Assembly: GCA_038253225.1 (NCBI GenBank)
Contig: JBBSHH010000001.1
Location: 3,537-67,536, forward strand
From: Mycobacteriales bacterium
Lineage (GTDB): Bacteria > Actinomycetota > Actinomycetes > JALYNC01
Reading direction: 5' to 3'
Length of the DNA stretch: 64,000 nucleotides
Shown here: piece after piece, positions 3,297 to 39,618 of the stretch
How the letters are laid out: each line of letters begins with the position of its first letter
How positions within the stretch are numbered: position 1 is the first letter of the stretch
Notes under the pieces: generated by a model
Database searches by the model: none
The model's input: the letters and a program-made list of their open reading frames with translations, nothing else
What the model was told of the DNA's origin: nothing
Program-made: the position numbers and the translations under genes

Positions 3297-5056
<1,760 letters not shown>

Positions 5057-17085: not shown

Positions 17086-20613
<3,528 letters not shown>

Positions 20614-20663
20614 GGACTCGCACGGCACCGGAGCACTCGACTCGGACGATCGGAAGGACTCCT

Positions 20664-22879: not shown

Positions 22880-22947
22880 CCGGCCGCACGCGCCCCGAGT
22901 TGCCCGGCTGGATTTTTCTCGATAGCCCTGCGAACAACTCCGCCGCG

Positions 22948-22987
22948 GTCCTAGTGTCCGGCCTAGGACGGCCCGACCGACCGTCCT
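22948..22987 (+). promoter_or_regulatory. Two overlapping, mutually exclusive hairpins in the 5' leader of the downstream secreted-protein gene
   Basis: Seen directly: GGTCCTAG-tgtccggc-CTAGGAC(G) competes with AGGACGG-cccgaccga-CCGTCCT. The shared AGGAC segment can pair in only one of the two. Confidence 0.35.
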
Positions 22988-23010
22988 CACCGCAGCTCGA
23001 GGAGATCGTC

Positions 23011-23526
23011 ATGAGAACCCGGATCTGGGCGGTCAGCGCCGCCACCTGTCTCGCCGGCGGTGCGCTGCTCGTCGCGGCGCTCGGCCCGGCGACGGCCGCG
23101 AGCTCGGCCCGCCCGCACGGCTGGGCCGGCGCGGTCGGGACGGCGCCAGCCGCCGCCCAACGGGCCGCGAACGCCCGCAGCATCAGCCTGGTCGCCCACC
23201 AGATCTTCAACCAGGACGTCGACGTCAAGCCGGCCGGCTTCAGCGCCGGCGACTACTTCGTGTTCGCGGAGACGCTGAGCTCCGGCGGCAAGGTCGTCGG
23301 CCGGGACGAGGTCCGCTGCATGGTCATGTACACGACCTTCCGCTGCGAAGGCGCGCTCATCCTCAACGGCAAGGGCCAGGTCGACGTCGCCGGCTCGTTA
23401 AGCCGGTACGGCTCGACGCTCGCCGTCACCGGCGGTACCAACAACTTCGTCGGTGCCCGCGGCCAGCTGGTCGTCGGCCGCAGTTCCGGCGACGACACCC
23501 CGCTGACCCTCGAGCTGCTGCCGTAA
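23011..23526 (+). CDS. Secreted hypothetical protein (signal peptide; possible allene-oxide-cyclase/dirigent-like beta-barrel)
   Basis: ATG after RBS gaggag, with a signal peptide AATCLAGGALLVAALGPATAASSA. It occupies the position of lpqU between mazG and eno in Mtb, but the product is not recognisably the same. Confidence 0.6.
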   Translation: MRTRIWAVSAATCLAGGALLVAALGPATAASSARPHGWAGAVGTAPAAAQRAANARSISLVAHQIFNQDVDVKPAGFSAGDYFVFAETLSSGGKVVGRDEVRCMVMYTTFRCEGALILNGKGQVDVAGSLSRYGSTLAVTGGTNNFVGARGQLVVGRSSGDDTPLTLELLP

Positions 23527-24915
<1,389 letters not shown>

Positions 24916-24918
24916 CCG

Positions 24919-25533
24919 GTGCAGATGCCGCGACGGCGGCGACCGCGCCACCCGACCGCTCACCGGACCGGGCTGCCGGCGGCGGGCGGGGGGCCGGCCA
25001 GCCGGCCGGCCGCGCCGCCGCGCCGCGCGACGGTGCGCCGGCCCACCCGTCCCGGCGCCGGGGCGGCCGCACCCCGGACCGGCGCCGGAGCGAGCCCGGC
25101 CGGGGGGCCGCAGCGCCGGTCGGCGCGTCGGCGTACCGGGCTGACGACGCGGGCGGCGATCCTCGCGGTCGCGGTCTGCGCGGTGGTGCTCTCGGTGGCC
25201 TATCCGCTGCGCGCGTTCGTCTCGCAGCGGGGCGAGATCTCCGCCATGCAGCAGCACCAGCGCGGGCAGCAGCAGCGGGTCGCCGCCCTGCAGCGGCAGC
25301 GGGACCGGCTCGCCGACCCCGCCTACATCCGCTCGCAGGCGCGGCAGCGGCTGCACTTCGTCGCACCGGGGGAGACGACGTTGCTGCTGCTCGGCCCGCC
25401 GACGGCCGCCGGCCGGCCGGCGCAGCATCCCGACGCCGGGGTCGCCGCCACGCCGGGCCCCTGGTACGCCAGGCTCTGGGCCACCGCGCAGGTCGCCGCG
25501 CAGCCGGCGGCAGCGCACCGCTCGAGCCGGTGA
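24919..25533 (+). CDS. FtsB/DivIC-family septum-formation initiator (Mtb Rv1024-like)
   Basis: Pro/Arg-rich N-terminus, a single TM (AAILAVAVCAVVLSVAY) and a coiled coil (RGEISAMQQHQRGQQQRVAALQRQRDRL). Confidence 0.65.
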   Translation: MQMPRRRRPRHPTAHRTGLPAAGGGPASRPAAPPRRATVRRPTRPGAGAAAPRTGAGASPAGGPQRRSARRRTGLTTRAAILAVAVCAVVLSVAYPLRAFVSQRGEISAMQQHQRGQQQRVAALQRQRDRLADPAYIRSQARQRLHFVAPGETTLLLLGPPTAAGRPAQHPDAGVAATPGPWYARLWATAQVAAQPAAAHRSSR

Positions 25534-26009
25534 ACCCCGCCGACAGGGCCGCGGTCGCCGCGCAGCTCGGTCGCCCGCCCCGCGCCCTGCGGTCGGTCGC
25601 GCATCGCTGCGTGTGCCGGCTGCCGGACGTGGTGGAGACCGCGCCCCGGTTGCCGGACGGCACCCCGTTCCCGACGCTGTACTACCTCAGCTGCCCGCGG
25701 GCCAGCGCGGCGGTCGGCCGGCTGGAGGCCGCCGGGGTGATGCGGGAGATGACGGCTCGGCTAGGCCGGGACCCGGCCCTCGCGGCGGCCTACCGCGCCG
25801 CGCACGAGGACTACCTACGCCGGCGGGACGCCATCGAGGCGCTGCCCGGCCGGGTGAGCGCCGGTGGGATGCCGGAGCGGGTGAAATGCCTGCACGCGCT
25901 CGTCGCGCAGGAGCTGGCGGTTCCCGGCAGCAACCCGCTCGGCCGGGAGGCGCTGGACCGGATAGCGGGCTGGGGCGAGCGGGGCCGCTGCGTCCCGAAC
26001 CCGGCGTGA
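25530..26009 (+). CDS. DUF501-domain protein (Mtb Rv1025-like)
   Basis: The track's long ORF is mostly GC-frame junk; the 3' 160-codon segment is the gene, and its GTG start overlaps the ftsB-like stop. Confidence 0.6.
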   Translation: MNPADRAAVAAQLGRPPRALRSVAHRCVCRLPDVVETAPRLPDGTPFPTLYYLSCPRASAAVGRLEAAGVMREMTARLGRDPALAAAYRAAHEDYLRRRDAIEALPGRVSAGGMPERVKCLHALVAQELAVPGSNPLGREALDRIAGWGERGRCVPNPA

Positions 26010-26959
26010 GGACCGGGGAGTCGCGGCGGGTCGCGGCGATCGACTGCGGGACGAACTCCATCCGGCTGCTCATCGCCGACACCGGAGCAGGTGGGCTGCG
26101 CGACGTCGTACGCCGGATGGAGATCGTCCGGCTCGGTCAGGGCGTCGACCGCACCGGCCGACTCGCCCCGGATGCCCTGCAACGCACGTTCACGGCGCTG
26201 CGCGGCTACGCCGCAGACATCGAGCGGTACGGCGCAGAGACGGTCAGGATGTGCGCCACCAGCGCCACCCGGGACGCCGCCAACCGGGACCGCTTCGTCC
26301 GCGGGGTCGTCGAGATCCTCGGTGTCGAGCCCGAGGTGGTCAGCGGCGAGGAGGAGGCCGCGCTGTCCTTCGCCGGCGCCACCGCCGACCTCGGCGACTC
26401 CCTGATCCGGCCCTACCTGGTCGTGGACATCGGCGGCGGCTCCACCGAGTTCGTGCTGGGTGACACCGAGGTGCGGGCGGCTCGCTCGGTCGACATCGGC
26501 TGCGTGCGGCTCACCGAGCGGCACCTGCACACCGACCCGCCGACCGTCGCCGAGGTCGCCGCCGCCACCGCGGACGTCGACGCGGCGCTGGTGACGGTCG
26601 GTCGCAGCGTGCCGGGCGCGCGCGCCCGGACGTTGATCGGGCTGGCCGGGACCGTCACGACCGTCGCCGGCCTGGCCCTGGACCTGCCGGCGTACGACCC
26701 GGAGCGGATCCACCACGCCCGGATCCCGGCCGCCGCGGTCGCCGCGGTCGCCGACCGGTTGCTCACCACGACCGCGGCCGAGCGGGCCGCGCTGCCGGTC
26801 ATGCACCCGGGTCGGGTGGACATCATCGGCGCCGGTGCGCTGATCCTGCGGCGGGTCGTCGAACGGTTCGGCTTCGCCGATGTCGTCGCCAGCGAGCACG
26901 ACATCCTGGACGGCATCGCCTGGAGTCTCGGCGCCGCCGCGGACCCTCCGGCGAGCTAG
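26006..26959 (+). CDS. ppx: Exopolyphosphatase / guanosine pentaphosphate phosphohydrolase (Ppx/GppA family)
   Basis: VAAIDCGTNSIRLLIAD ... DIGGGSTEF are Ppx/GppA actin-like ATPase motifs. Its GTG start overlaps the DUF501 stop. Confidence 0.85.
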   Translation: MRTGESRRVAAIDCGTNSIRLLIADTGAGGLRDVVRRMEIVRLGQGVDRTGRLAPDALQRTFTALRGYAADIERYGAETVRMCATSATRDAANRDRFVRGVVEILGVEPEVVSGEEEAALSFAGATADLGDSLIRPYLVVDIGGGSTEFVLGDTEVRAARSVDIGCVRLTERHLHTDPPTVAEVAAATADVDAALVTVGRSVPGARARTLIGLAGTVTTVAGLALDLPAYDPERIHHARIPAAAVAAVADRLLTTTAAERAALPVMHPGRVDIIGAGALILRRVVERFGFADVVASEHDILDGIAWSLGAAADPPAS

Positions 26960-27846
26960 CGCGCCGCAGGGTCGGCCGTGGCCGCGACGATGGCGGCCGC
27001 GAACCGCTGCGCCGCACCCGCGCTCGTGGTGAGGAACATCGACGGCTCGGTCACCTCGAGCTCGAGCAGCAGCGGCCGCCCGTCCCGGCCGGGGACCAGG
27101 TCGACCCGGGCGTAGAGCAGCGGGCGGTCGCCGGCTGGCGTCGCCGCCAGCGCGGCGGCGGCCACCTCGCGCTGCGCGGCGGAGGGCGTCCGCGGCTGGA
27201 TGGACTCGGCGGTGAACAGTACCGCCGGGACCGGGCGGCCACGGGCGAGCAGCGCCCCCTTGCGGACCGCGTGGCTGAGCTGCCCGTCGAGGAAGAGCAG
27301 CGCGGTCTCCCCGGCGTCGTCCACGCCGGTCAGGTAGGGCTGCACCATCACGGTCCGCCCGGCGTCGAGCAGGCCGGCGGCGTGCGCGTGCGCCTGCTTC
27401 CGGTCGGCGGTGGTGTAGCGGGCGGTGTCCCTGGCTCCGGCCGAGACCGCCGGCTTGACGACGTACTCGCCGGTCGACGGCAGCTCGACGCGCTCACCGG
27501 GCTCCAGCCAGTCGGTGGGGACCACCGGGACCCCCGCCGCGGCCAGCTCGCGCAGGTAGCGCTTGTCGGTGTTCCAGCGCAGCACCGGCAACGGGTTGTG
27601 CAGCCGGGTCCGCTCCGACGTCGCCGCCGCCCAGGCCAGGAACTCCGCGTGCCGTCGGGCGTAGTCCCAGGTGGAGCGGATGACCGCGATGTCGTAGGCC
27701 GACCAGTCCGTCGTCGGGTCGTCCCAGGCCACCATGGTGGGCGCCGCCCCGGCGCGGCGCAGCGCCGCGAGCAGCAGCGGCTCGTCCTCGTCCAGCCCGA
27801 CGGCGCCGTACGCCGTGACCAGCGCGACCGATCTCACGGTCCCCAC
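26956..27846 (-). CDS. ATP-grasp domain protein (RimK/glutathione-synthetase-like ligase, substrate unknown)
   Basis: Pre-ATP-grasp N-terminus and an ATP-grasp core (YVVKPAVSAGARDT...DLVPGRDGRPLLLELEVTEP). Confidence 0.65.
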   Translation of the reverse strand: MGTVRSVALVTAYGAVGLDEDEPLLLAALRRAGAAPTMVAWDDPTTDWSAYDIAVIRSTWDYARRHAEFLAWAAATSERTRLHNPLPVLRWNTDKRYLRELAAAGVPVVPTDWLEPGERVELPSTGEYVVKPAVSAGARDTARYTTADRKQAHAHAAGLLDAGRTVMVQPYLTGVDDAGETALLFLDGQLSHAVRKGALLARGRPVPAVLFTAESIQPRTPSAAQREVAAAALAATPAGDRPLLYARVDLVPGRDGRPLLLELEVTEPSMFLTTSAGAAQRFAAAIVAATADPAAR

Positions 27847-27896
27847 CCTGCCAGCCGGCGGTACCGGGCCGGGCCGCGGTAGGTCATCATGCCCGG

Positions 27897-28841
27897 GTGC
27901 CTGTCGTGGAAGTGCACCAGCTGCGCAAGGCCTACCGGCGGCGCGGCCGGCGCGGGCTGCCCAGCCGGGAGCGCCGGTCGGCGCTGGACGGCCTCGACCT
28001 GGTCGTCGCCGACGGCGGCGTGCACGGCTTCCTCGGGCCGAACGGGTCCGGCAAGACCACCACGCTGCGGATCCTGCTGGGGCTGGTGCGCGCCGACGCC
28101 GGCGAGGTCCGGCTGCTCGACAACGCGGTGCCAGCCGGACTCGACCGGGTCGTCGGCGGGGTCGGCGCGCTGATCGAGGCCCCGCAGTTCTTCCCGGTCT
28201 TCACCGGCCGCCGCAACCTGGAGCTGCTGGCCGGTGTCGCCGGGCTCCCCAGGCAGCGGGTCGCGGAGGTGCTCAGCCAGGTCGGGCTGGCCGGTCGGGC
28301 CGACGACCGGGTGAAGGCCTACTCGCTCGGCATGCGGCAGCGGCTCGGCATCGCCGCCGCGCTGCTCAAGCGGCCGCGGCTGCTCGTGCTCGACGAGCCG
28401 ACGAACGGGCTGGACCCGGCCGGTATGCGGGAGGTCCGCGAGCTGCTGCGCTCGCTCGGCCGCCGCGGGGTCACGGTCCTGCTCTCCTCGCATCTGCTCG
28501 CCGAGGTCGAGCAGGTCTGCGACGCGGTCACGATCGTCGCGAACGGCCGGACGGTGGTCTCCGGCTCGGTCCGCGAGGTGCTCGCCAGCGCGTCCGGCGG
28601 CGGCCGGCTGCGCGTCGTCGTCGAGCACGCCGCCCAGGCGGCGGCCGTGCTGCGCGCCGGTGGCCTTGCGGTGACCGAGGACGCCGGTGCGCTGCTGGTC
28701 ACCGGCGCGGAGGACCCGGCCACGGTCAGCCGGCTGCTCGGCGAGCAGGGGCTGTGGCTGCGGGAGCTCCAGCCCGAGCACGTCGACCTCGAGGACGCGT
28801 TCCTGGCCCTGACCGGGGCGGCGACCGAGGGGGTGCGGTGA
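27897..28841 (+). CDS. ABC transporter ATP-binding protein (ABC-2 type exporter subunit)
   Basis: Walker A GPNGSGKTT, signature YSLGMRQRL, Walker B LLVLDEPTNGLD and H-loop. The start is a GTG. Confidence 0.85.
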   Translation: MPVVEVHQLRKAYRRRGRRGLPSRERRSALDGLDLVVADGGVHGFLGPNGSGKTTTLRILLGLVRADAGEVRLLDNAVPAGLDRVVGGVGALIEAPQFFPVFTGRRNLELLAGVAGLPRQRVAEVLSQVGLAGRADDRVKAYSLGMRQRLGIAAALLKRPRLLVLDEPTNGLDPAGMREVRELLRSLGRRGVTVLLSSHLLAEVEQVCDAVTIVANGRTVVSGSVREVLASASGGGRLRVVVEHAAQAAAVLRAGGLAVTEDAGALLVTGAEDPATVSRLLGEQGLWLRELQPEHVDLEDAFLALTGAATEGVR

Positions 28842-29797
28842 GCCGGCTGCTCGGTGTCGAGATCCGCCGGCTCACCTCCCGACGGCTGCTCCGGCTGCTC
28901 GTGCTGCTGCTGCTCGCCACGATCGTCGTGGTGGCGGTGGTCGACGGGGTGCGCTCCCACCGGGACGTCGCGGCAGCCCGGGCCGCCGCCGCGGCGCAGG
29001 CGGCGCAGTACGCCCGGCAGGCGCCGCCGCCGGCGGAGCAGCAGCAGCTCTGCGAGGACGCCAAGGCCCGCGGGGAGGCCCCGCCGGACGCGAACTGCGA
29101 GGTCAAGGCACCCACCGCGGCGGACTTCTTCGCCGACCCCCGGTACCGACTGGCCACCCAGCTCCCGAACGCGGTCGGTGGGGTGCTGGTGGGCGTCGGG
29201 CTGCTCGGTGTCGTGGTCGGCGCGAGCGCGATCGGCGCCGAATGGTCGGCCGGCACCTACGCCGGACTCCTCGCCTGGGAGCCGCGCCGGGTCCGCGTGC
29301 TCACGGCCAAGCTGCTGGCGATCCTGGCCGTGCTCGGCGTCGTCGGCGTCGTGGCGCTCGGCCTCGAGACACTGCTCGGCTGGGTGGTGGCTGCGACCCG
29401 CGGTACGACGGCGGGCACCACCGGCGCGGTGGTCAGCGAGGTCCTGCTGCGCTGCGGGCGCGGGCTCGGGCTGGTCGCGCTGCTCTCGGTCGCGGCCGCC
29501 TCGGTCGCCGGGCTGCTGCGCTCGACCGCGGGCGCGCTCGGGGTGGCCGCGGCCTACCTCGTCGGCGGCGAGCTGGTGCTGCGCGGGCTGCGGCCGGGCT
29601 GGGAGCGCTGGCTGCTGACCAGCAACGCCGGTGCGATCGTCACCGGCCGGGTCCAGGTCGTCGGCAGGCGTTTCCGCACCGGGATGACGACCCTCTACAC
29701 CCTGCACGCGGGTCGCGCCGCGGTCTATCTCGGCCTCGGCGTGGTGGTGCTGGTCGCCGTCTCGGCGGTGGTGCTGCGCCGCCGCGACGTCACGTGA
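28838..29797 (+). CDS. ABC-2 family transporter permease
   Basis: GTGA overlap with the ATPase gene and ~6 predicted TM helices. The track ORF is over-extended upstream in the same frame. Confidence 0.75.
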
Positions 29798-29810
29798 GCC
29801 CGGTCGGCCG

Positions 29811-30599
29811 GTGAGCGGTGTGCCGCCCGGCTCGGGGTGGCCGGGGGATCCGGCGACGCCGCGCACCCCGGTGGCCGGCGGCTCGGCCGAGGTGGTCGAG
29901 CTCGCCGCCACGGCCGGGAGCCTCGCCGACGTCCGGGCCCGCAGCTCGGTCTGCCGGGCCTGCCCCCGCCTGCTGCGATGGCGGGAGCAGGTGGCGGTCG
30001 AGCGCCGCGCGGCGTACGCCGACCAGGTCTACTGGGGCCGGCCGATCCCCGGCTGGGGCGACCCGGCGGCCACGATCGCGGTCGTCGGGCTCGCCCCGGC
30101 GGCCCACGGCGGCAACCGGACCGGGCGCATCTTCACCGGGGACCGCAGCGGGGACTGGCTGTTCGCGGCCCTGCACCGCGCCGGGCTGGCGGCGAGCCCG
30201 GCTAGCACCGCCGCCGACGACGGGCAGCGACTGATCTCCACCTGGCTGGCGGCGGCGGTTCGTTGCGCCCCGCCAGCGAACCGGCCGACGCCGGCGGAGC
30301 GGGACACCTGCCGACCGTGGCTGGAGCGGGAGCTGGCGCTGCTGACGCCGTCGCTGCGGGTCGTCGTCGCTCTCGGCGGCTTCGCCTGGACGGCGCTGTG
30401 GCCGGTGCTGCGGCGGCTCGGGCACCGGCTGCCCGTGCCGCGGCCGGCCTTCGGGCACCGCGCGGAGGTCGATCTGGGCCACGTGTCGTTGCTCGGTTGT
30501 TACCACCCCAGCCAGCAGAACACCTTCACGGGCCGGCTGACGGCAGCCATGCTCGACGACGTGTTCGCCCGTGCCATCGCCATCGCCGGCCCGGGCTGA
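29811..30599 (+). CDS. Uracil-DNA glycosylase superfamily protein, family-5 (UdgB-like)
   Basis: Motif [26 protein letters not shown] (the GLAPA form without a catalytic Glu is typical of UdgB). An upstream Cys cluster CRACPRLL suggests an Fe-S site, and motif B is GCYHPSQQN. Confidence 0.7.
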
Positions 30600-31360
30600 T
30601 GGCTGAGGCGTCCGGGCCGCCCACGCCCGCGCGGCCGCCACGACCGCGGGCCCGGCCGGCAGCGCGCTCGGCGGTCTCGGCGATGGCGCTCGCCGGGCTG
30701 GTGCCGCTGCTGCTGCTGATCGCCTGGGCGGCGCGCAGCGGCTCCCCGGTGACGGGACGGCCACTGCCGCTGGGCCGGCGACCGGCGGCCGGGGCCGGGT
30801 CCGACCCGCCCGCCAGCTTCGGCCCGATCATCCCGGTCCGAGAGCAGAACACCCACTTCAGCCTGCTGTTCTACGTCGCGATGGCCCTGGTGCTGGTCGG
30901 CATCGTGCTGCTCGTCGTGCTGGTCGGCTGGCTGCTGCGGATGATCGCCGTCCCGGCCGGTCTGCGCCGGGGTCCGCGGGACGCCGACGACGCACCACCG
31001 ACGGGGGACGCCGCGGTGGCGCCCGTGGTCGACCGCGGGCGGCTGCACGGTGAGGTCGTCGCCGGGCTGGAGGAGCTCGAGAACACCGCCGACCCGAGGC
31101 GGGCGGTCATCGGCTGCTGGCTGCGGCTGGAGGCGGCCGCAGCGGCGGCGGGCACGGCCCGCCTCGCCGCCGAGGCACCGGGTGAGCTCGTCCGCCGGGT
31201 GCTCCGGGCGCACGACGTCCGGCCGCCGCCGCTGGAGCAGCTCGGCGCGCTCTACCGGGAGGCCCGCTACTCCGGCCACCCGATCGGCGAGGACCGGCGC
31301 CGGGCCGCCCGGGCGGCCCTCGACGAAGTCCGCCGGGACCTGATCGGGACGCCACGGTGA
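30599..31360 (+). CDS. DUF4129-domain membrane protein
   Basis: Two N-terminal TM helices followed by the DUF4129 region (GCWLRLEAAAA...YREARYSGHP). Its ATG overlaps the UDG stop. It is the first gene of the MoxR/DUF58 cluster. Confidence 0.6.
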   Translation: MAEASGPPTPARPPRPRARPAARSAVSAMALAGLVPLLLLIAWAARSGSPVTGRPLPLGRRPAAGAGSDPPASFGPIIPVREQNTHFSLLFYVAMALVLVGIVLLVVLVGWLLRMIAVPAGLRRGPRDADDAPPTGDAAVAPVVDRGRLHGEVVAGLEELENTADPRRAVIGCWLRLEAAAAAAGTARLAAEAPGELVRRVLRAHDVRPPPLEQLGALYREARYSGHPIGEDRRRAARAALDEVRRDLIGTPR

Positions 31361-31857
31361 CCGGGTTCGTCCGCGGCGTGGTCCGCAGCCTGGTGTGGGG
31401 CGGTGCCACCGGTCTGGGTGCGGCCCTGGGCGCGCTGCGGCTCGGCCTCGCCGTCGACGGCCGCGGCCTGGTCGCGCTGGGCATCCTCGTCGCCGCCCTC
31501 TACCGGCTGATCGCGCTGACCCGGGAGGGTGCCGGCCCGCTGCCCCTGCCGCGCACCGTCGGCGGCCCGCCGCCGGACCGACCGTTCGAACGGCTGGACC
31601 GGCTCGAGGACCGGCTGTCCTGGGGGATTCGGACGGCGCACCACTTCGACAGCGGCGTCCGACCGGTGCTGACCGGCATCGCCGCCGACCGGCTCCGCCG
31701 CCGGCACGGCATCGACCTCGCCCGTGAACCCGAGCGGGCCCGACACCTCCTCGGAGACGACCTGTGGCGACTGGTGACGCCGGCGCAGCCTGGACCCGTC
31801 CGCCCGCCGGCACCGCAGGAGCTGGCGGGCTGGGTGAGTCGGCTCGAGTCGCTGTAG
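31357..31857 (+). CDS. Small membrane protein of the MoxR/DUF58 cluster
   Basis: GTG start overlapping the upstream stop and two predicted TM helices. Confidence 0.5.
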   Translation: MTGFVRGVVRSLVWGGATGLGAALGALRLGLAVDGRGLVALGILVAALYRLIALTREGAGPLPLPRTVGGPPPDRPFERLDRLEDRLSWGIRTAHHFDSGVRPVLTGIAADRLRRRHGIDLAREPERARHLLGDDLWRLVTPAQPGPVRPPAPQELAGWVSRLESL

Positions 31858-31910
31858 CGACGCCGGTCCCCCCGCGCGACGCCGCCGCCGCCGGGCGGAG
31901 CTGCGACCGG

Positions 31911-32858
31911 GTGTTCGAGATGGTGGCGCGCGCGGTGGTCGGGAAGCGGCCGGCGCTCGAGCTGGTCCTGGCCGGGATCCTCGCCGGCGGCCATGTGCTG
32001 CTCGAGGACTACCCCGGTCTGGGCAAGACGCTGATCGCCCGATCGTTCGCGCAGGCGCTCGGGATCCGGTTCCGGCGGATCCAGTTCACCCCCGACCTGC
32101 TGCCCGCCGACATCACCGGCTCGTTCATCTACGACCAGCGGACGTCGGAGTTCGACTTCCGGCCCGGGCCGATCTTCACCTCGCTGCTGCTCGCCGACGA
32201 GGTCAACCGCACGCCGCCGAAGACGCAGGCCGCGCTGCTGGAGGCGATGCAGGAGGCGCAGGTCAGTGTCGAGGGCACCACCTACCCGCTCGAGCCCCCG
32301 TTCCACGTGCTGGCTACCGCGAACCCGATCGAGTACGAGGGCACCTACCCGTTGCCCGAGGCGCAACTCGACCGCTTCCTGCTGCGGGTGTCCCTGGGCT
32401 ACCCGTCTGCGGACGAGGAGTGGCAGGTGCTCGAACGCCGGGTCGCCCGGCGCCGGGAGGACCAGACGGTGCCGGCGGCCGTCGACGCCGCCGGCCTGCT
32501 CGACCTGCAGCGGACCGTCGAGTCGGTGCCGGTGGAGGAGAGCGTCGGTCGCTACATCGTCGAGCTGACCGCGGCGACCCGATCGCACCCGCAGATCCTC
32601 GTCGGGGCCTCCCCGCGCGGTGCGCTCGCGATGCTGCTGTGCGCCCGCGCGCTGGCCGTGCTGCGGGGCCGCGACTTCGTCACCCCCGACGACGTCAAGG
32701 AGGTGGCCGTACCCGCGCTGTCCCACCGGGTGACGCTGCGGCCGGAGCTGTGGCTGCGCCGGGTCACCGCCGAGGACGTCATCGGCGGCCTGCTGGCCGA
32801 CGTGCCGGTGCCGGTCAGCGGCGCGCTGCCGTCGTACGGCGCCGGCGGGTCACGCTGA
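31911..32858 (+). CDS. MoxR-family AAA+ ATPase
   Basis: VVGKRPALELVLAGILAGGHVLLEDYPGLGKT (Walker A), LADEVNRTPPKTQAALLEAMQE (Walker B / sensor) and the C-terminal MoxR lid. An in-frame GTG at 31911 (or ATG 31920) is a likelier start than the track's 31764. Confidence 0.9.
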   Translation: MFEMVARAVVGKRPALELVLAGILAGGHVLLEDYPGLGKTLIARSFAQALGIRFRRIQFTPDLLPADITGSFIYDQRTSEFDFRPGPIFTSLLLADEVNRTPPKTQAALLEAMQEAQVSVEGTTYPLEPPFHVLATANPIEYEGTYPLPEAQLDRFLLRVSLGYPSADEEWQVLERRVARRREDQTVPAAVDAAGLLDLQRTVESVPVEESVGRYIVELTAATRSHPQILVGASPRGALAMLLCARALAVLRGRDFVTPDDVKEVAVPALSHRVTLRPELWLRRVTAEDVIGGLLADVPVPVSGALPSYGAGGSR

Positions 32859-34195
32859 GCATCCTCGCCACCACCGGCCGGGACCGCGGTTGGCCGCGGC
32901 GGTCCTTTGCCGGTTGGTACGCCACCCGGGCGCTGGGTCGGGCCGCCGCCACCGCGGCCACCCTGCTGGTCGGCGGGCTGGTCCTGGGCCGGGTGGACCT
33001 GGTGGTGATCGCGGTGCCGTTCCTGGTCGGCACCACGCTGGCTGTCGGGCGCCGCGGGCCGGCCGGGGTGCAGGCCCGGCTCGAGCTGCCGGTCACCACG
33101 CTGCCGGAGGGGTTGGCGGTGGAGGCGGTGGTGCGGGTGGCCGCCGACACCGCGCTCGACGCCGTGCTGGTCAGCGTCACCACCGCGCCGGGCGTCGCGG
33201 TGGTCGACGGTCCCCGGCAGCGGGTCGTCGCGCTGCGGGCCGGCGAGGAGGTCAGCCTGTCGGTCCGGGTGCGGGTGCTGCGCTGGGGCCGGCGGGCGGT
33301 CGGTCCGGTCACGGTGCGCGCCGTCGGCACCGGGCTGCTGCTCGGGCCGGAGCCGGTGACGGTCGCCGCGGTCGGTGTCCGGGCCGTCCCGGTCGGGGAG
33401 CGCTTCGCCGCCGAGAGCCCGATGCCGCAGGCGCTGGCGCACGCCGGCTCGCACCTGTCCCCTCGCCCCGGGGAGGGCGCCGAGTTCGCCGGTATCCGGC
33501 CCTTCGACCGCGGTGACCGGCCACGCCGGGTGAACTGGCGGGTGAGCCTGCGGGCCCGCGAGCTGCACGTGACCAGCACCCGAACCGAGCGCAGCACCGA
33601 TGTGCTGGTGCTGCTCGACTCCCTGCACGACGCCGGTCGGTCCGGCGGTGTCGACGGGGTGGCGAGCAGCCTCGACGTCACGGTCCGGGCCGCGGCCGGC
33701 ATCGCGGAGCACTACCTCGCCCGCGGCGACCGGGTCGGGCTGGTCGACTACGGCGGCCGGTTCCGGGTGCTGCCACCCGCCGCCGGCCGAGCGCACCGCA
33801 CCCGGATCCTGGACTGGCTGCTCGACACGGCGGTGGACACCCGCGGCGCCGAGACACCGACCCGGCTGCTCGGCCCGCGGGTCATCCCCCCGCGCGCCCT
33901 GGTGCTCGCGTTGACGCCGCTGCTGGACCCGCGGGCGGCGAACCTGCTCGCCGAGCTGCGGCGCCGCGGTCAGGCGGTGCTGGTCGTCGACACGCTGCCC
34001 GCCGCCGCGGTGGAACCGTCCCGGCGGCCGTTGCGCGGGCTCGCCGAGCGGCTGTGGCGGCTGGAGCGGGAGGAGCTACTGGCCCGGCTGGCGGAGATCG
34101 GCGTGCCGGTGGCCGGCTGGTCGGGCGCCGGCAGCCTCGACGCCGTACTCGCCGACGTGGCCCGGATGTCCGCCGCCCCGAGGGCGCTGCGGTGA
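32849..34195 (+). CDS. DUF58-domain protein (VWA-like, MoxR partner)
   Basis: DUF58 core ...FAGIRPFDRGDRPRRVNWRVSLRARELHV...DVLVLLD... The 5' end is uncertain: no canonical start codon sits near the MoxR stop, and the first in-frame GTG is at ~32993. Confidence 0.7.
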   Translation, partial: VTLSILATTGRDRGWPRRSFAGWYATRALGRAAATAATLLVGGLVLGRVDLVVIAVPFLVGTTLAVGRRGPAGVQARLELPVTTLPEGLAVEAVVRVAADTALDAVLVSVTTAPGVAVVDGPRQRVVALRAGEEVSLSVRVRVLRWGRRAVGPVTVRAVGTGLLLGPEPVTVAAVGVRAVPVGERFAAESPMPQALAHAGSHLSPRPGEGAEFAGIRPFDRGDRPRRVNWRVSLRARELHVTSTRTERSTDVLVLLDSLHDAGRSGGVDGVASSLDVTVRAAAGIAEHYLARGDRVGLVDYGGRFRVLPPAAGRAHRTRILDWLLDTAVDTRGAETPTRLLGPRVIPPRALVLALTPLLDPRAANLLAELRRRGQAVLVVDTLPAAAVEPSRRPLRGLAERLWRLEREELLARLAEIGVPVAGWSGAGSLDAVLADVARMSAAPRALR

Positions 34196-34746
34196 CCGCC
34201 GAGCGACCCGGCCGACCCCGGCGGTGGGGCGTGCCGGTGCGGACTCCGGCGCTGCTCGCCGCCGCCGTCCTCGGCGTCGGGCTCGACATCGCCACGGTGC
34301 TCGTCGCCGGGGGCGCCAACCCGGTGCGCGGCCTGGCCGGGTTGGTGGCGCTGCTGCTGCTCGGCGCCCTGGTCCGCCCGGGCGGCGGCTTCCCGACCGC
34401 CGCCGTGCTGGGGCTGGTCGCCAGCTACACGCTGGCGGTGCTGCTGGCCGGTGGTGCGCGCCCAGCGGTCCCCGCCGTCCTCGCGTTCGGCGCCGGGCTC
34501 TACCTGCTGCACGCCGTGCTGTCGCTGGTCGCGGTGGTCCCGACCGGCGCGGGAGTGGAGCCGGCGGTGCTGGTCCGGTGGGCGACCGGCACCGGCTCGA
34601 CCCTGGCGCTGTCGGCCCCGCTGGCCACGGTCATGCTGGTGCTCGGCTCGCCCGGGCCGGCGGCTCCCGCGGTCCGGGCCGCCGGCATGGCGGCCACCCT
34701 GCTGGCGCTCGCCGTACCGATCGGCCTGCTGGCCCGACGCCGCTGA
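34192..34746 (+). CDS. Integral membrane protein (4-5 TM) ending the MoxR cluster
   Basis: GTGA overlap with the DUF58 stop and strongly hydrophobic. Confidence 0.5.
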   Translation: MTAERPGRPRRWGVPVRTPALLAAAVLGVGLDIATVLVAGGANPVRGLAGLVALLLLGALVRPGGGFPTAAVLGLVASYTLAVLLAGGARPAVPAVLAFGAGLYLLHAVLSLVAVVPTGAGVEPAVLVRWATGTGSTLALSAPLATVMLVLGSPGPAAPAVRAAGMAATLLALAVPIGLLARRR

Positions 34747-34792
34747 CCAACCGTCGCGGAGCCCGGGAAGGGCCTGGTGGGAGCATCACGGC

Positions 34793-36127
34793 ATGACGTT
34801 TCAGCAGCGCCCGCACATCCTCGTGGTCGGCGGTGGCTACGTCGGCATGTACGCCGCGTTGCGGCTCCAGCGACGGCTGCGGGCCGGTGAGGCGAGCATC
34901 ACGGTGGTCGACCCGAACTCCTACATGACCTACCAGCCGTTCCTACCGGAGGCGGCCGCCGGCAACCTCGAGCCCCGCCACGTCGTGGTGTCGCTGCGTC
35001 GGGTGCTGCGCCGCTGCCAGGTCCTCAGCGGCTTCGTCCGGCGCATCGACCACCAGCGTCGGGTGGCGACGTTCCATCCACTGGCGGGAGACCCGGTCGA
35101 CCTTTCCTACGACATCCTCGTCTACGCCGCCGGCTCGGTGGCGCGCACGCTGCCGATCCCCGGCCTCGCCGACGTCGGCATCGGGTTCCGGACCGTCGCC
35201 GAGGCGATCTACCTCCGCAACCACGTGCTGGCGAAACTCGACCTCGCCGCCTCCAGCCCCGACCCGCAGCTGCGCCGACGGGCGCTGACGTTCCTGGTCA
35301 TCGGCGGTGGCTACGCCGGCGTGGAGGCGCTCGCCGAGCTGCAGGACATGGCGGTCGACGCGCTGCGCTACTACGACGGGCTACGCGCCTCGGACATGCG
35401 CTGGGTGCTGGTGGAGGCCGCGGCGCGCATCCTGCCCGAGGTCAGCGCCGGCCTCGGCAGCTACACCGTCGAGGAGCTGCGCCGGCACGGCATCGAAGTG
35501 CTGCTGAACGCCCGGGTCAGCTCGCTCACCGGCGGCCACGTCGTTCTGGACAGCGGTGCGGCCTTCGACGCGGAGACCGTCGTGTGGACGGCGGGTGTCC
35601 GGCCCAACCCGCTGGCCCGCGCCACGGACCTTCCGGTCGACGACAAGGGACGGCTGCGCGCCACCGAGTTCCTGACCGTCGAGGGGCTCGAGGACGCCTG
35701 GACCGCCGGCGACTGTGCCGCCGTGCCGGACCTGACCAGGGCGCCGGGGGAGTTCACCGGACCGAGCGCGCAGCACGCCGTGCGGCAGGCGAAGCGACTC
35801 GCGGACAACGTTGTCGCCGCGCTACGCTGCCAGCAGGTCCGCCCGTACAAGCACGCCTACGCCGGCTCGGTCGCCAGCCTGGGCCTGCACCAGGGCGTCG
35901 CGGAGATCTACGGGGTTCGGCTGCGTGGCTGGCCGGCGTGGGTGATGCACCGCAGCTACCACCTGAGCCGGGTGCCGACGCTCAACCGCAAGGTGCGGGT
36001 CGCGGCCGACTGGACCCTGGCCCTGTTCTTCCAGCGCGAGATCGTCTCACTCGGTGGCTTCACCGACCCCCGAGCGGACTTCGTCTCCGCGGCCCGACCC
36101 GGCCCGGACGCCGCGGTTGAGCGGTAA
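34793..36127 (+). CDS. ndh: Type II NADH:quinone oxidoreductase (NDH-2)
   Basis: Two Rossmann motifs (ILVVGGGYVGMYAA; FLVIGGGYAGVEALAEL) and a C-terminal membrane-anchoring region. The start is the ATG at 34793. Confidence 0.85.
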   Translation: MTFQQRPHILVVGGGYVGMYAALRLQRRLRAGEASITVVDPNSYMTYQPFLPEAAAGNLEPRHVVVSLRRVLRRCQVLSGFVRRIDHQRRVATFHPLAGDPVDLSYDILVYAAGSVARTLPIPGLADVGIGFRTVAEAIYLRNHVLAKLDLAASSPDPQLRRRALTFLVIGGGYAGVEALAELQDMAVDALRYYDGLRASDMRWVLVEAAARILPEVSAGLGSYTVEELRRHGIEVLLNARVSSLTGGHVVLDSGAAFDAETVVWTAGVRPNPLARATDLPVDDKGRLRATEFLTVEGLEDAWTAGDCAAVPDLTRAPGEFTGPSAQHAVRQAKRLADNVVAALRCQQVRPYKHAYAGSVASLGLHQGVAEIYGVRLRGWPAWVMHRSYHLSRVPTLNRKVRVAADWTLALFFQREIVSLGGFTDPRADFVSAARPGPDAAVER

Positions 36128-36199
36128 GCCCACCGCAGCCGGCCGGCGCGTGGCACGGTGGCGAAGCCGATCCGTCCCCAGCTCACCCGGAGGTGCCCC

Positions 36200-37576
36200 G
36201 TGTCGGGGATCGCAGAGTCGTTGGAGCCGATGCTCACCGACTTCGTCGGCCCGCTGCCGCTGCGGCTGCGGGCCTGGGACGGCAGCGAGGTCGGCCCCCC
36301 GGATGCGCCGGTGGTGCTGGTGGTCCGGTCCCCGCGCGCGCTGCGCCGGCTGCTGTGGTCACCGAACGAGCTGGGGCTGGGCCGCGCGTACGTCGCGGGC
36401 GAGCTTGACATCGACGGCGACCTGTTCGCCGCGCTGGCGCTGCCGGACATGCTGCCGCGCCGGCCGGAGATGACGCTGCGCGCCGCGGGCCGGCTGCGGC
36501 TGGTGCTGACCGCACTGCGGCTGGGCGCCGTCGGTCCTCGTCCGGCGCCGCCGCCGGAGGAGGCCGCGGTATCCGGCTCCCGACACAGCCAGCGCCGTGA
36601 CGCCGCCGCGGTCGCGCACCACTACGACGTCGGCAACGAGTTCTACCGGCTCGTGCTCGGATCCTCGATGGTCTACTCCTGCGCGTTCTGGCCCACCCCG
36701 CCCGGGCCGACGTTCACGCTGGCGGACGCGCAGGAGGCCAAGTGCTCGCTGGTCGCCCGCAAGCTCGGGTTGCGCGCCGGCCAGCGGCTGCTCGACGTCG
36801 GGTGCGGCTGGGGGACGATGGTGCTGCACGCGGCCCGGGAGTACGGCGTGGAGGCGGTCGGCGTGACGGTCTCCGCCGAGCAGGCCGAGCTGGCGCGGCA
36901 GCGGGTCGCGGCCGCCGGGCTCGCGGACCGGGTCGAGATCCGGCTGCAGGACTACCGCGAGGTCAGCGACGGGCCCTTCGACGCGATCTCGAGCATCGGC
37001 ATGGCCGAGCACGTGGGCGCCGCCCAGACCAGCGCCTACGCCGCCCGGCTGGCTTCCCTGCTGCGGCCGGAGGGTCGGCTGCTGCACCACGCGATCTCCC
37101 GGCGTCCCGGGCCCCACCCGATCACGGAAAACTCCTTTCTGCAGCGCTACGTCTTCCCCGACGGCGAGCTGCTGCCGGTCGCGGAGACGGTCGGCGCGCT
37201 GGAGGACGCCGGGCTCGAGGTCCGCGACGTGCAGTCGCTGCGGGAGCACTACGCGCTCACGCTGCGGCAGTGGATCGGCAACCTGGAGGCGAACTGGGAC
37301 ACCGCGGTGCGGGTGACCAGCGAGGGCCGCGCCCGGGTGTGGCGGCTCTACATGGCCGCCGCGGCCGTCGCGTTCGACTCGGGCCGGATCGGGGTCAACC
37401 AGACCGTGGCCGTGCGGCCCGGGGTGCGCGGGACCAGCGGTATGCCGCTGACCCGGGCGCAGTGGCTCGTGCCGCCGGCCCGGTCGGTCGGCGAGACGGC
37501 GGCTGCCGCTCCGCCGCATCCGGCGCCCCGGCTCAACTCGGACGCCTGCGCCGACCAGCGAAGGGGGCCCGCGTGA
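36200..37576 (+). CDS. Cyclopropane-fatty-acyl-phospholipid synthase family SAM-dependent methyltransferase
   Basis: HYDVGNEFYRLVLGSSMVYSCAFW ... LLDVGCGWGT ... are CFA-synthase/mycolic acid cyclopropane synthase family motifs. The start is taken as the GTG at 36200 after RBS ggagg. Confidence 0.8.
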   Translation: MSGIAESLEPMLTDFVGPLPLRLRAWDGSEVGPPDAPVVLVVRSPRALRRLLWSPNELGLGRAYVAGELDIDGDLFAALALPDMLPRRPEMTLRAAGRLRLVLTALRLGAVGPRPAPPPEEAAVSGSRHSQRRDAAAVAHHYDVGNEFYRLVLGSSMVYSCAFWPTPPGPTFTLADAQEAKCSLVARKLGLRAGQRLLDVGCGWGTMVLHAAREYGVEAVGVTVSAEQAELARQRVAAAGLADRVEIRLQDYREVSDGPFDAISSIGMAEHVGAAQTSAYAARLASLLRPEGRLLHHAISRRPGPHPITENSFLQRYVFPDGELLPVAETVGALEDAGLEVRDVQSLREHYALTLRQWIGNLEANWDTAVRVTSEGRARVWRLYMAAAAVAFDSGRIGVNQTVAVRPGVRGTSGMPLTRAQWLVPPARSVGETAAAAPPHPAPRLNSDACADQRRGPA

Positions 37577-38091
37577 CGCCGCTCGCCGTCACGGTTCTGG
37601 GGGTGGACCGGCCCGGCATCGTCGCGGCGGTCACCGGCGTACTGGACCAGCTGGGCGGCAACCTCGAGGACTCCGCCTCGTCCATCCTGCGCGGCCAGTT
37701 CGCGATGACGCTGATCGTCAGCGCGCCGGTCGATGCGGAGCAGGTCCGGGCCAGGCTGGCGCCGGTGGCCGAGGCGCTCGACCTGACCCTCGCGGTCCGG
37801 CCGGTGCCACCGGTGACCTCTCACCCCGGCACCGGCAGCAGCTTCGTGCTCTCGGTGCACGGCGCGGACAAGCCGGGCATCGTCGCCGCCGTCGCCGGCC
37901 TGCTGGCCGACCGGCGGGGCAACATCACCAGCCTGTCGACCCGGGTGGCCGGCGAGTTGTACGTGCTGGTCGCGGAGGTGGAGCTGCCGGCCGGGGTCGC
38001 CATGGCGGACCTCACCGCAGCGCTGGACCGGCTGGCCGCCGAGCTCGGGGTGCGGGCCAGCCTCCACGCCGCCGACGCCGACCTGATCTAG
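37573..38091 (+). CDS. Tandem ACT-domain protein (GcvR-like regulatory protein)
   Basis: Two ACT repeats (AVTVLGVDRPGIVAAVTGVL...; VLSVHGADKPGIVAAVAGLL...). Its GTG overlaps the upstream stop. Confidence 0.65.
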   Translation: MTPLAVTVLGVDRPGIVAAVTGVLDQLGGNLEDSASSILRGQFAMTLIVSAPVDAEQVRARLAPVAEALDLTLAVRPVPPVTSHPGTGSSFVLSVHGADKPGIVAAVAGLLADRRGNITSLSTRVAGELYVLVAEVELPAGVAMADLTAALDRLAAELGVRASLHAADADLI

Positions 38092-38101
38092 GGCTCTCCC
38101 G

Positions 38102-38608
38102 GTGAGCCGAGTTCTGCCGGTGCGGCTGGCCCCGGACCCGGTGCTGGCCACCGTCGCCGCGCCGGTCGACCCCTGCGCGGCGTCGACGGTTGAGCTCGCC
38201 GCGGACCTACTGGCCACCATGCGGGCCTCGCTCGGCTGCGTCGGGCTGGCCGCGCCGCAGGTCGGCGTCGCGGCCCGGGTGTTCTGCCTGGACGTCACCG
38301 GCCACCGCAAGGCGCGCTCCTGCGCCGGCCCGGTGGTGGTCGTCAACCCGCAGCTGCTGCTCGCCGAGGACCCGGAGCAGGCCCGCGAGGGGTGCCTGTC
38401 GGTGCCGGACCTCACCGGTGACGTGCTGCGGGCCCGCCGGGTCGTGCTCCGCGGGGCGGTGCCCGGCAGCGGGGCGCCGGTCGAGCTCGTCGCGGACGCC
38501 TTCGAGGCCCGCGCCGTGCTGCACGAGCTGGACCACCTCGACGGCAAGTTGTTCCTCGACCGGGTCGCCGGCGCGCATTCGGTCTTCACCCGCAAGCGTT
38601 ACCTCTGA
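38102..38608 (+). CDS. def: Peptide deformylase
   Basis: Motifs GVGLAAPQ, EGCLSVP and HELDHLDG. Confidence 0.85.
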   Translation: MSRVLPVRLAPDPVLATVAAPVDPCAASTVELAADLLATMRASLGCVGLAAPQVGVAARVFCLDVTGHRKARSCAGPVVVVNPQLLLAEDPEQAREGCLSVPDLTGDVLRARRVVLRGAVPGSGAPVELVADAFEARAVLHELDHLDGKLFLDRVAGAHSVFTRKRYL

Positions 38609-38644
38609 CCGCCACCCGGTCGGGTGGGCCATCATGGTGACTCC

Positions 38645-38728
38645 GCCCGGGTGGTGGAATGGCAGACACGGGGGCCTTAAAAGCCTCTGCCGCAAGGCGT
38701 GCGGGTTCGAGCCCCGCCCCGGGCACCG
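38645..38728 (+). tRNA. tRNA-Leu (anticodon TAA)
   Basis: Hand-folded: acceptor GCCCGGG/CCCGGGC, anticodon stem GGGGC/GCCUC with loop CUUAAAA (anticodon UAA), long variable arm UGCCGCAAGGCGU (type II, Leu), T-arm GCGGG-TTCGAGC-CCCGC and discriminator A. Confidence 0.8.
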
Positions 38729-38838
38729 GGCGCCGTACAGCGCGGGCGAGAGCCGGTCCGTCCGCGCCGGGAACTTCTCGGCTTTACTAAGTGTTGACCT
38801 ACCCGGATGTCCGCCACGGTTGCCCTCGAGGGAGAGCG

Positions 38839-39618
38839 ATGAGAACCAGCAACAACCCCGTGCTGTCGCGTCGGGACGTGTTCAGCCGCGGGAGCTACCC
38901 GGGCGTGGCCACACCGTCCACCGAGACCCTCGACGCGATGTACGGCGCGACGCCGACCATCACCCGGCGGATGACGATCGACGACGTCGTGGTCCGCACC
39001 GCCACGCTGCTCGGCATCGTGGTGGTCACCGGCGGCGGCGCCTGGGCGCTGCGGTTGAGCACCGGCCCGGCGATCATCGCCGCGCTGGCCGGGTTCGTCA
39101 TCGCGATGCTCGTGACGGTCCGACGGACGATCAACCCGCCGTTGATCCTGACCTACGCCGCGCTCGAGGGTGTGTTCCTGGGCGCCATCAGCCGGGTCTT
39201 CGAGCTCGCCTATCCGGGGATCGTTGTACAGGCCGTCGTCGGCACGGTGGCGACGTTCGCGGGGATCCTGATCGCGTACAAGAGCGGTCGGATCCGGGTC
39301 ACCCCGAAGTTCCAGAAGATGGTCGTCGGCGCGCTGTTCGGGCTGGTCGGGCTGATGGTCGTCAACCTGCTCGCGAGCGTCTTCGTCAGCGGCGGGCTGG
39401 GGCTGCGCAGCGGCGGTCCGCTCGCGATCGTGTTCAGCCTGGTGTGCATCGGTGTCGCCGCGCTGTCCTTCGCGCTCGACTTCGACGCCATCGAGAAGGG
39501 CATCGCCCGGGGGGCCCCTGAGCGGGAGTCGTGGCTGGCGGCGTTCGGCCTGCTGGTCACGCTGGTCTGGCTCTACCTCGAGATCCTCCGGCTGCTCAGC
39601 TACCTGCGCGAGCGCTGA
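38839..39618 (+). CDS. Bax-inhibitor-1/YccA-family (TMBIM-like) membrane protein
   Basis: Seven predicted TM helices and a glycine-rich hydrophobic profile typical of the BI-1/YccA family. The ATG follows RBS gagggagag, and a promoter-like TTGACC lies ~60 nt upstream. Confidence 0.6.
   Translation: MRTSNNPVLSRRDVFSRGSYPGVATPSTETLDAMYGATPTITRRMTIDDVVVRTATLLGIVVVTGGGAWALRLSTGPAIIAALAGFVIAMLVTVRRTINPPLILTYAALEGVFLGAISRVFELAYPGIVVQAVVGTVATFAGILIAYKSGRIRVTPKFQKMVVGALFGLVGLMVVNLLASVFVSGGLGLRSGGPLAIVFSLVCIGVAALSFALDFDAIEKGIARGAPERESWLAAFGLLVTLVWLYLEILRLLSYLRER

Follow-up and report, generated by a model that had tools for sequence, protein, structure and literature searches.

Analysis of the 64-kb window (positions 3,537 to 67,536 of contig JBBSHH010000001.1, assembly GCA_038253225.1, from a Mycobacteriales bacterium) indicated that the six consecutive plus-strand genes at 29811-34746 probably form two independent units, namely the uracil-DNA glycosylase (UDG) gene udgB, which resides in a conserved block, and a self-contained five-gene, membrane-anchored MoxR/DUF58 cassette (30599-34746; genes g2 to g6), which would act as an ATP-driven remodelling or assembly module. 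With a G+C content of about 77%, the window carries long spurious open reading frames in all frames; gene frames were resolved by analysis of G+C at the third (GC3) and the other codon positions, and all six genes are backed by their GC3 frame signal. The six genes and the ndh gene that follows them are:

29811-30599, plus strand: g1 (udgB), family-5 (UdgB-type) 4Fe-4S uracil-DNA glycosylase, 262 aa (Pfam UDG, 1.6e-22)
30599-31360, plus strand: g2, two transmembrane (TM) helices and a C-terminal DUF4129 five-helix bundle, 253 aa, or 225 aa from 30683 (Pfam DUF4129, 3e-12)
31357-31857, plus strand: g3, small membrane protein of 166 aa with an N-terminal TM hairpin, a Pro-rich linker and a C-terminal helical domain (no Pfam or NCBIfam family)
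31764-32858, plus strand: g4, MoxR-type AAA+ ATPase (MRP/AAA_3 type), 364 aa from GTG 31764 or 315 aa from GTG 31911 (AAA_3, 6e-63; AAA_lid_2, 1.2e-24)
32855-34195, plus strand: g5, N-terminal TM hairpin and DUF58 (vWA-related) domain, 446 aa from CTG 32855 or 481 aa from GTG 32750 (Pfam DUF58, 1.8e-14)
34192-34746, plus strand: g6, polytopic membrane protein (~4-5 TM helices), 184 aa (no Pfam or NCBIfam family)
34793-36127, plus strand: ndh, type II NADH dehydrogenase, 444 aa (Pfam Pyr_redox_2, 4.6e-39, and NDH2_C)

The independence of the two units emerges from the comparison of gene neighbourhoods. Positions 19992-39618 of the window (end of mfd, SurA-like gene, MazG, eno, ftsB/DivIC, DUF501, ppx, ABC-2 transporter, udgB, ndh, cyclopropane-fatty-acid-type methyltransferase [CMAS], ACT, def, tRNA-Leu and BaxI) represent a housekeeping block that is conserved across Actinomycetota as mfd-...-eno-ftsB-DUF501-ppx-...-udgB-ndh-(CMAS)-ACT-def-BaxI. 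The closest homologue of the window glycosylase (P0057, 77% identity) is encoded on a 295-kb metagenomic contig (locus L040) in the order mfd-SurA-like-MazG-...-eno-DivIC-DUF501-Ppx-DLH-ABC-ABC2-UDG-Ndh-CMAS, collinear with window 19992-37467 at 68-75% nucleotide identity. The sole large difference between them is an extra 4.2 kb in the window between UDG and ndh, which holds g2 to g6 (position 10776 of L040 corresponds to window 30589, and 10828 to 34807). In L040 the UDG gene shares 4 nt with the ABC-2 permease gene ahead of it, and ndh, whose product is 78% identical to the window Ndh, begins 30 nt past the UDG gene, so tight spacing is generic here and not informative on linkage. The order eno-DivIC(ftsB)-DUF501-Ppx...UDG-Ndh, with no cassette, was also found in Thermomonospora (L041) and Nonomuraea sediminis (L043), and the ACT, def and BaxI_1 genes downstream of CMAS in the window match the L043 block; Nonomuraea soli carries the cassette at another site (L026).

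To follow the cassette itself, alignment A1 of g2 relatives was used to retrieve 39 loci from species-representative genomes, with tblastn and GC3-guided gene calls; the cassette counts given throughout cover 41 loci. A UDG gene stands upstream of the cassette in 30 of them, essentially Micromonosporaceae plus one metagenome-assembled genome (MAG; L001), and is missing in the other 11. Neither UDG nor ndh accompanies the cassette in Streptomyces (L044), Actinopolymorpha (L005/L045), Nonomuraea soli (L026), Streptosporangium (L029), Planobispora (L035), a Natronosporangium MAG (L034) and the MAGs L038 and L039. The cassettes that lack both flanking genes include one from an Acidimicrobiaceae MAG. 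The eno block lies within ~10 kb of the cassette in all UDG-linked loci with enough flank and in none of the unlinked ones, the flanks of which are unrelated to each other (GH48, S15 peptidase, zwf-opcA-pgl) and yielded no recurrent sixth gene among the cassette neighbours. The gap from UDG to g2 ranges from -29 to +252 nt (mostly 2-60), and that from g6 to ndh is usually ~70-160 nt. Overall, udgB, the cassette and ndh are pairwise separable, the presence or absence of the cassette is independent of both flanking genes, and the adjacency of the UDG gene is positional. The claim of the sequence-only reading that the glycosylase belongs to the unit is thus contradicted twice, by udgB-ndh pairs without a cassette (L040, L041, L043) and by the 11 cassettes without UDG; its proposed linkage to MoxR/DUF58 survives the neighbourhood comparison for the DUF4129 gene and fails for the UDG gene. 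In the Asanoa-type loci (L009, L013 and L014) the eno-ftsB-DUF501-ppx block lies downstream and inverted, and it is upstream in all other UDG-linked loci with enough flank; this rearrangement is local and left udgB-cassette-ndh intact.

The cassette has a fixed gene order, g2-g3-MoxR-DUF58-g6, in every locus with enough sequence, in agreement with the conservation in actinobacteria that had been stated for the MoxR-DUF58-membrane trio, and its internal junctions are 4-nt overlaps in most loci. Likewise, relatives of the window-type DUF4129 gene with enough flank all lead into g3, MoxR, DUF58 and a g6-sized membrane gene, mostly through 4-nt overlaps. The loci come from Micromonosporaceae, Nonomuraea, Streptosporangium, Planobispora, Actinopolymorpha, an Acidimicrobiaceae MAG and a MAG labelled Limnocylindrales. 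The Streptomyces locus and that of a second Actinopolymorpha genome (L045) contain the same five genes, with Pfam matches on DUF4129, MoxR and DUF58 only. In Streptomyces lavendulae the same five ORFs flank the lavencidin polyketide synthase cluster, with no function assigned (PMC12093942).

Several loci deviate in detail. One Natronosporangium MAG has two copies, one between udgB and ndh (L031) and one elsewhere, beside a GH48 cellulase gene (L034). The Nonomuraea soli locus (L026, 9126-11225) has three tandem DUF4129 genes (223, 228 and 230 aa) followed by g3-MoxR-DUF58-g6, and a SLATT_2 (2-TM effector) gene directly upstream of the cassette, after zwf-opcA-pgl. A Dactylosporangium MAG (L023, 6890-7636) still has udgB upstream of the cassette, but the gene after g6 encodes a polysaccharide deacetylase instead of Ndh. 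Finally, on a contig assigned to Candidatus Limnocylindrales (Chloroflexota; L008, 9599-15063) the cassette is present without udgB, and ndh lies downstream of it. In the tree, the MoxR and DUF58 proteins of L008 fall with those of Catellatospora (Micromonosporaceae), which suggests that the contig was mis-binned or that the cassette was transferred.

The domain searches bore out the initial assignments, Pfam confirming UDG, DUF4129, AAA_3 with AAA_lid_2, and DUF58, with g3 and g6 as membrane proteins matching no family in Pfam or NCBIfam. The call of a family-5-type glycosylase, made from its motif A and cysteine cluster, holds as well. The best solved relative of g1 is the Thermus thermophilus UDGB (2d3y; E 4.6e-56, aligned over 215 residues); the other UDG chains matched, family-4 enzymes, reached E 1.8e-05 to 1.5e-04, and g1 falls short of the NCBIfam cut-offs for family 4 (46 bits versus 125). 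Motif A of g1 (GLAPAAHGG, residues 93-101) aligns to GLAPGAHGS of Thermus UDGB and has no acidic residue of the family-4 GE(A/G)PG type. Residues C48, C51, C151 and C167 align to the four cluster cysteines of 2d3y, and motif B (HPSQQN) aligns to HVSRQN (H-x-S-x-Q-N). With motif A (GLAPxAHG), the cysteines and motif B in common, there is no notable difference between the two proteins; the N-terminal extension of ~45 residues in g1 occurs in many actinobacterial orthologues. Orthologues at 65-77% identity, named Type-5 UDG in UniRef, are spread through Actinomycetota, and by its sequence g1 appears to be an ordinary UdgB orthologue, a housekeeping base-excision-repair gene. The closest known enzymes are Thermus UDGB and UdgB of Mycobacterium tuberculosis (Rv1259).

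Of the cassette proteins, g2 has a core motif invariant in alignment A1 (DPRRAVIxCWxRLExAAAAAGxxR), and its AlphaFold2 model (mean predicted local distance difference test, pLDDT, 78) places TM helices at 25-47 and 86-116, a disordered linker, and the five-helix DUF4129 bundle at 146-249 with pLDDT >90. The g3 model (pLDDT 78.7) consists of a TM hairpin (2-57), a Pro-rich linker and a helical domain of ~90 aa (76-165). This protein is kept at the same position across cassette loci and has conserved motifs (RWExRL and ERLRxRHG...DPxRARxLLGxxLW; alignment A2); a profile search brought up 434 proteins, all called 'hypothetical' and none with a Pfam domain. Against DUF7269, five of 23 members gave sub-threshold scores of 16-21 bits (cut-off 29.1; best E 3.2e-05), and for DUF4350 neither g3 nor 23 homologues gave a match, with E<=1 allowed. 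The g6 protein is hydrophobic over its whole length, with invariant P63, Y104, H107, W130 and G165 (alignment A3), and a g6-sized gene closes nearly every complete cassette; a single-sequence search of 1.84 billion representatives returned only 12 hits, and the family evolves too fast for searches of this kind. Profile-profile tests detected no paralogy of g2 with g3 or of g6 with g3 (probability 0.2% and 1.5%, respectively).

The MoxR protein, 61-75% identical to the cassette MoxR of other loci, spans the full AAA_3 profile and shows GLGKT, LLLADEVNR, ATANP, LDRF and SPRG, that is, intact Walker A and B, sensor 1, arginine finger and sensor 2; the RavA model matched it at E 0.0088 only. The DUF58 gene stands directly 3' of MoxR and encodes the conserved family motif GxGGELAGVRxFxPGDRLRRIDWR. 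The position equivalent to DxSxS of the metal ion-dependent adhesion site (MIDAS) is degenerate, reading LLDSLHD in the window and LLDxLHE/D in all family members, so that the MIDAS motif is not intact. No separate vWA, BatA-like or TPR gene was found in the cassette, and the transglutaminase core (Transglut_core, Pfam) is absent from all five proteins. According to the definition of Snider and Houry (2006), as cited in PMC12067865, an MRP operon includes an additional, separate vWA gene.

The genes had been described as mostly overlapping, with the glycosylase and DUF4129 genes translationally coupled to the trio by ATGA/GTGA overlaps, and this holds in part. The g2/g3 and g5/g6 junctions are true GTGA overlaps, but the g3/MoxR junction reads GTAG (31854-31857), where no start codon is present, and the MoxR/DUF58 junction reads CTGA (32855-32858); MoxR and DUF58 are therefore without a canonical start at the coupling point in the window. 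Most homologous cassettes have ATGA or GTGA at both of these junctions. For MoxR, GTG 31764 gives a 94-nt overlap with g3 and the annotated GTG 31911 a 53-nt gap; homologue alignment and a GC3 of 1.0 from 31857 onwards suggest that the annotated start is too short, trimming ~14 conserved N-terminal residues. At the next junction the frame signal switches exactly at 32855. Initiation at CTG 32855 yields a g5 product of 446 aa, inside the 441-460 aa usual for homologues, and GTG 32750 would create a 109-nt overlap; the DUF58 gene may initiate at CTG.

The proposed overlap of udgB and g2 depends on the start of g2, since the udgB stop and ATG 30599 form a 1-nt TGATG overlap only if g2 begins there, as in the Logan call, and the NCBI annotation of the contig places the start at 30683, leaving a gap of 83 nt. 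The 28 codons at 30599-30682 have no frame signal (G+C by codon position 0.82/0.89/0.86). In g2 homologues a short basic stretch precedes the first TM helix, which favours the longer g2, short of proof. Within 27000-38500 neither a sigma-70-like promoter nor an intrinsic terminator was found between the genes or elsewhere, in a scan that is nearly blind at ~77% G+C (0.0 promoters and 1.0 terminators expected from shuffled controls).

Taken as a unit, the cassette lends itself to a mechanistic proposal. The 4-nt overlaps seen in most loci would fit co-translation of its products in set proportions. Because of the positive-inside rule, the hairpin topologies and even numbers of TM helices, and the lack of signal peptides, the soluble domains of g2, g3 and g5 would lie on the cytoplasmic side, together with MoxR. 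Given that the usual companion of a MoxR ATPase is a protein of the vWA type, a MoxR hexamer could be tethered to the membrane via the DUF58 protein. Its ATPase activity would serve to assemble or remodel a protein complex in the membrane or associated with the envelope, or to extract one; g2, g3 and g6 would take part in fixed stoichiometry, as scaffolds, adaptors or clients.

Other arrangements were weighed against that of two independent units. A single six-gene operon, in which the UdgB-like glycosylase works with DUF4129/MoxR/DUF58 and MoxR-DUF58 matures or tethers, for example, the iron-sulfur enzyme, is very improbable and largely refuted by the gene-neighbourhood data. Such an operon would account for the position of the UDG gene, directly ahead of the cassette in 30 of the 41 loci, for the possible 1-nt stop/start overlap in the window and for the failure to detect a terminator, and some MoxR relatives do help to insert metal cofactors (PMC3893208). 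However, the 30 linked loci, nearly all from Micromonosporaceae, share with the window one position within the eno...ppx-udgB-ndh block, L040, Thermomonospora and Nonomuraea retain UDG-ndh with no cassette, and 11 loci have the cassette with no UDG; moreover, the UDG-g2 spacing is variable whereas most overlaps inside the cassette are of 4 nt, and the g2 start that makes the overlap is unproven. The proximity of ndh raises instead a role in the respiratory chain, in which the cassette assembles or regulates Ndh or another respiratory complex in the way that RavA-ViaA, which interacts with Nuo subunits (PMC3893208), does with Complex I. The ndh gene follows g6 in ~27 loci, including L008 that has no UDG, at a distance of only -4 nt in L001 and 7 nt in L031. 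We nevertheless regard this role as unlikely, given that ndh stands directly beside UDG without a cassette in L040, L041 and L043, that at least 10 loci have the cassette without ndh, and that the usual g6-ndh gap is ~70-160 nt; L008 groups with the Micromonosporaceae cassettes and is probably the same placement with UDG lost, or mis-binned.

There is hardly any probability left for a MoxR-vWA-type conflict or anti-phage system with the membrane proteins as effectors. Conflict systems do contain MoxR-vWA modules (Kaur et al., 2020, cited through PMC12067865), a weak bpMoxR match was obtained (E 1.7e-05, 24.5 bits, under the 27-bit cut-off), and a SLATT_2 gene neighbours the Nonomuraea soli copy. 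On the other hand, none of the five proteins had a PADLOC match at E<=0.01, effector, beta-propeller and nuclease domains are not present, and the cassette sits in a stable housekeeping context, free of flanking repeats and mobility genes, and seems to have passed vertically through a whole family. A bolder version of the module proposal would see in the cassette a distinct, undescribed membrane machine of Actinomycetota, in which the stand-alone DUF4129 protein provides a conserved dock for MoxR/DUF58, as the module found at the end of TgpA-type transglutaminases, g3 and g6 are dedicated partners or clients in envelope or respiratory-membrane protein assembly, and the repeated use of the udgB-ndh site reflects membrane energetics, not DNA repair; this is a speculative idea with a small chance of being right.

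Some observations also tell against two independent units of which the cassette is a remodelling module. Since no terminator was found and a 1-nt overlap is possible, udgB and the cassette may be co-transcribed in the window genome. The topology and the functional role of the cassette proteins are predictions. With DxSxS degenerate across the g5 family, canonical metal-mediated vWA binding may not apply in the DUF58 protein, and fold searches with g2 and g3 returned generic helical bundles only. Furthermore, the window and Micromonosporaceae cassettes occupy the same udgB-ndh site and do not fall together in a crude tree, so that the cassette may have come to this site long ago and stayed there, perhaps with a slight advantage from its position.

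In that tree, a crude neighbour-joining reconstruction from MoxR and DUF58, the cassettes of Micromonosporaceae, L001 and L008 cluster together, the window cassette stands outside, and the copies of Actinopolymorpha and Streptosporangiales lie between them. Around the cassette no flanking direct or inverted repeats and no mobility genes were found, only G+C-rich chance matches. The occurrence of the cassette between udgB and ndh would be compatible with an old placement followed by losses and moves, including loss in the L040 lineage, or with repeated insertion.

The remaining genes around the six, in the plus-strand string resolved by codon-position G+C, are the following:

27897-28841, plus strand: ABC ATPase
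28838-29797, plus strand: ABC-2 permease
36230-37576, plus strand: cyclopropane-fatty-acid-type methyltransferase (CMAS)
within 37480-38091, plus strand: ACT-domain protein, start not fixed
38102-38608, plus strand: peptide deformylase (def)
38645-38727: tRNA-Leu
38791-39618, plus strand: BaxI_1 protein

Upstream of these, a 296-aa gene on the minus strand (26956-27846) shows a very strong coding signal (GC3 0.97) but matches no Pfam family, and occupies the site where L040 has a plus-strand dienelactone hydrolase gene. No rRNA was found in the 64-kb window.

MoxR-DUF58 operons are among the commonest prokaryotic clusters without a known function, and the five-gene variant offers a clean and tractable target, the more so as it is present in genetically accessible Streptomyces, Micromonospora and Actinoplanes. 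It shows DUF4129 linked to MoxR/DUF58 in the absence of any transglutaminase, and it flags two unannotated membrane-protein families, g3 and g6. A false lead is removed at the same time, there being no evidence of a DNA glycosylase working with a MoxR system.

Compared with described systems, the cassette is a variant among the well-known, functionally obscure MoxR-DUF58 systems. In Pseudomonas aeruginosa, PA2875-PA2874-tgpA are co-transcribed as one unit with an essential membrane transglutaminase (PMC3507681); a MoxR-vWA-transglutaminase operon ('MoxR-vWA-YebA'; Zhang and Aravind, 2012) was predicted to act next to the membrane (PMC3495828), and the bifidobacterial PFNA core comprises AAA-ATPase, DUF58 and Tgm (PMC12067865). 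These systems place a MoxR AAA+ ATPase beside DUF58 and a membrane protein, and the cassette does the same, its adjoining MoxR and DUF58 genes being co-oriented with that of the DUF4129 membrane protein; moreover, DUF4129 is common to g2 and TgpA-type transglutaminase proteins. The domain normally forms the C-terminal end of such transglutaminases in Pfam architectures. In the cassette, by contrast, a transglutaminase or peptidase core is lacking, DUF4129 is found by itself on a protein with two TM helices, the gene of which comes first in order, g3 and g6 are extra, and DxSxS is degenerate in DUF58.

The nearest described relatives, both uncharacterised, are the mycobacterial moxR2 cluster and an archaeal DUF4350-MoxR-vWA neighbourhood. 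The former (Rv3689-Rv3693, Rv3694c and Rv3695) has membrane proteins around MoxR (Rv3692) and DUF58 (Rv3693), is co-regulated in Mycobacterium chelonae and has no function assigned (PMC8191103). A DUF4350 protein (Rv3691) precedes MoxR there, whereas the cassette has the shorter g3 with no DUF4350 match, and SpoIIM-like and RDD genes accompany the cluster where the cassette has g6. Rv3690 is a putative DUF4129 protein. The archaeal and bacterial neighbourhood, predicted to form a secretion or membrane-remodelling complex (Makarova, Galperin and Koonin, 2015; PMC5898192), shares with the cassette a MoxR/GvpN-type ATPase, a DUF58-like vWA protein and several small membrane proteins. Unlike it, the cassette has no DUF4350, Ig-like or S-layer parts, and its soluble domains are predicted to be cytoplasmic, not secreted; the similarity of g3 to DUF7269 is weak and sub-threshold only.

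More broadly, MoxR ATPases act in chaperone-like maturation of specific complexes with a vWA cofactor, an MRP member is needed for membrane integrity, and MRP-type members have also been tied to stress tolerance (PMC3893208). Like the cassette, RavA-ViaA, NorQ/NorD, CoxD/CoxE and CbbQ/CbbO combine an AAA+ MoxR ATPase with a neighbouring gene for a partner of the vWA type, and pairs of the RavA-ViaA type mature specific, often membrane or respiratory, complexes (PMC3893208). The cassette differs from such pairs in that its MoxR appears to be of another subfamily, the AAA_3/MRP type, and that a DUF58 protein anchored in the membrane takes the place of the soluble vWA partner. By this comparison, the cassette appears to be related to the mycobacterial moxR2 cluster and to the MoxR-DUF58-TgpA (YebA-like) systems, but without a transglutaminase.

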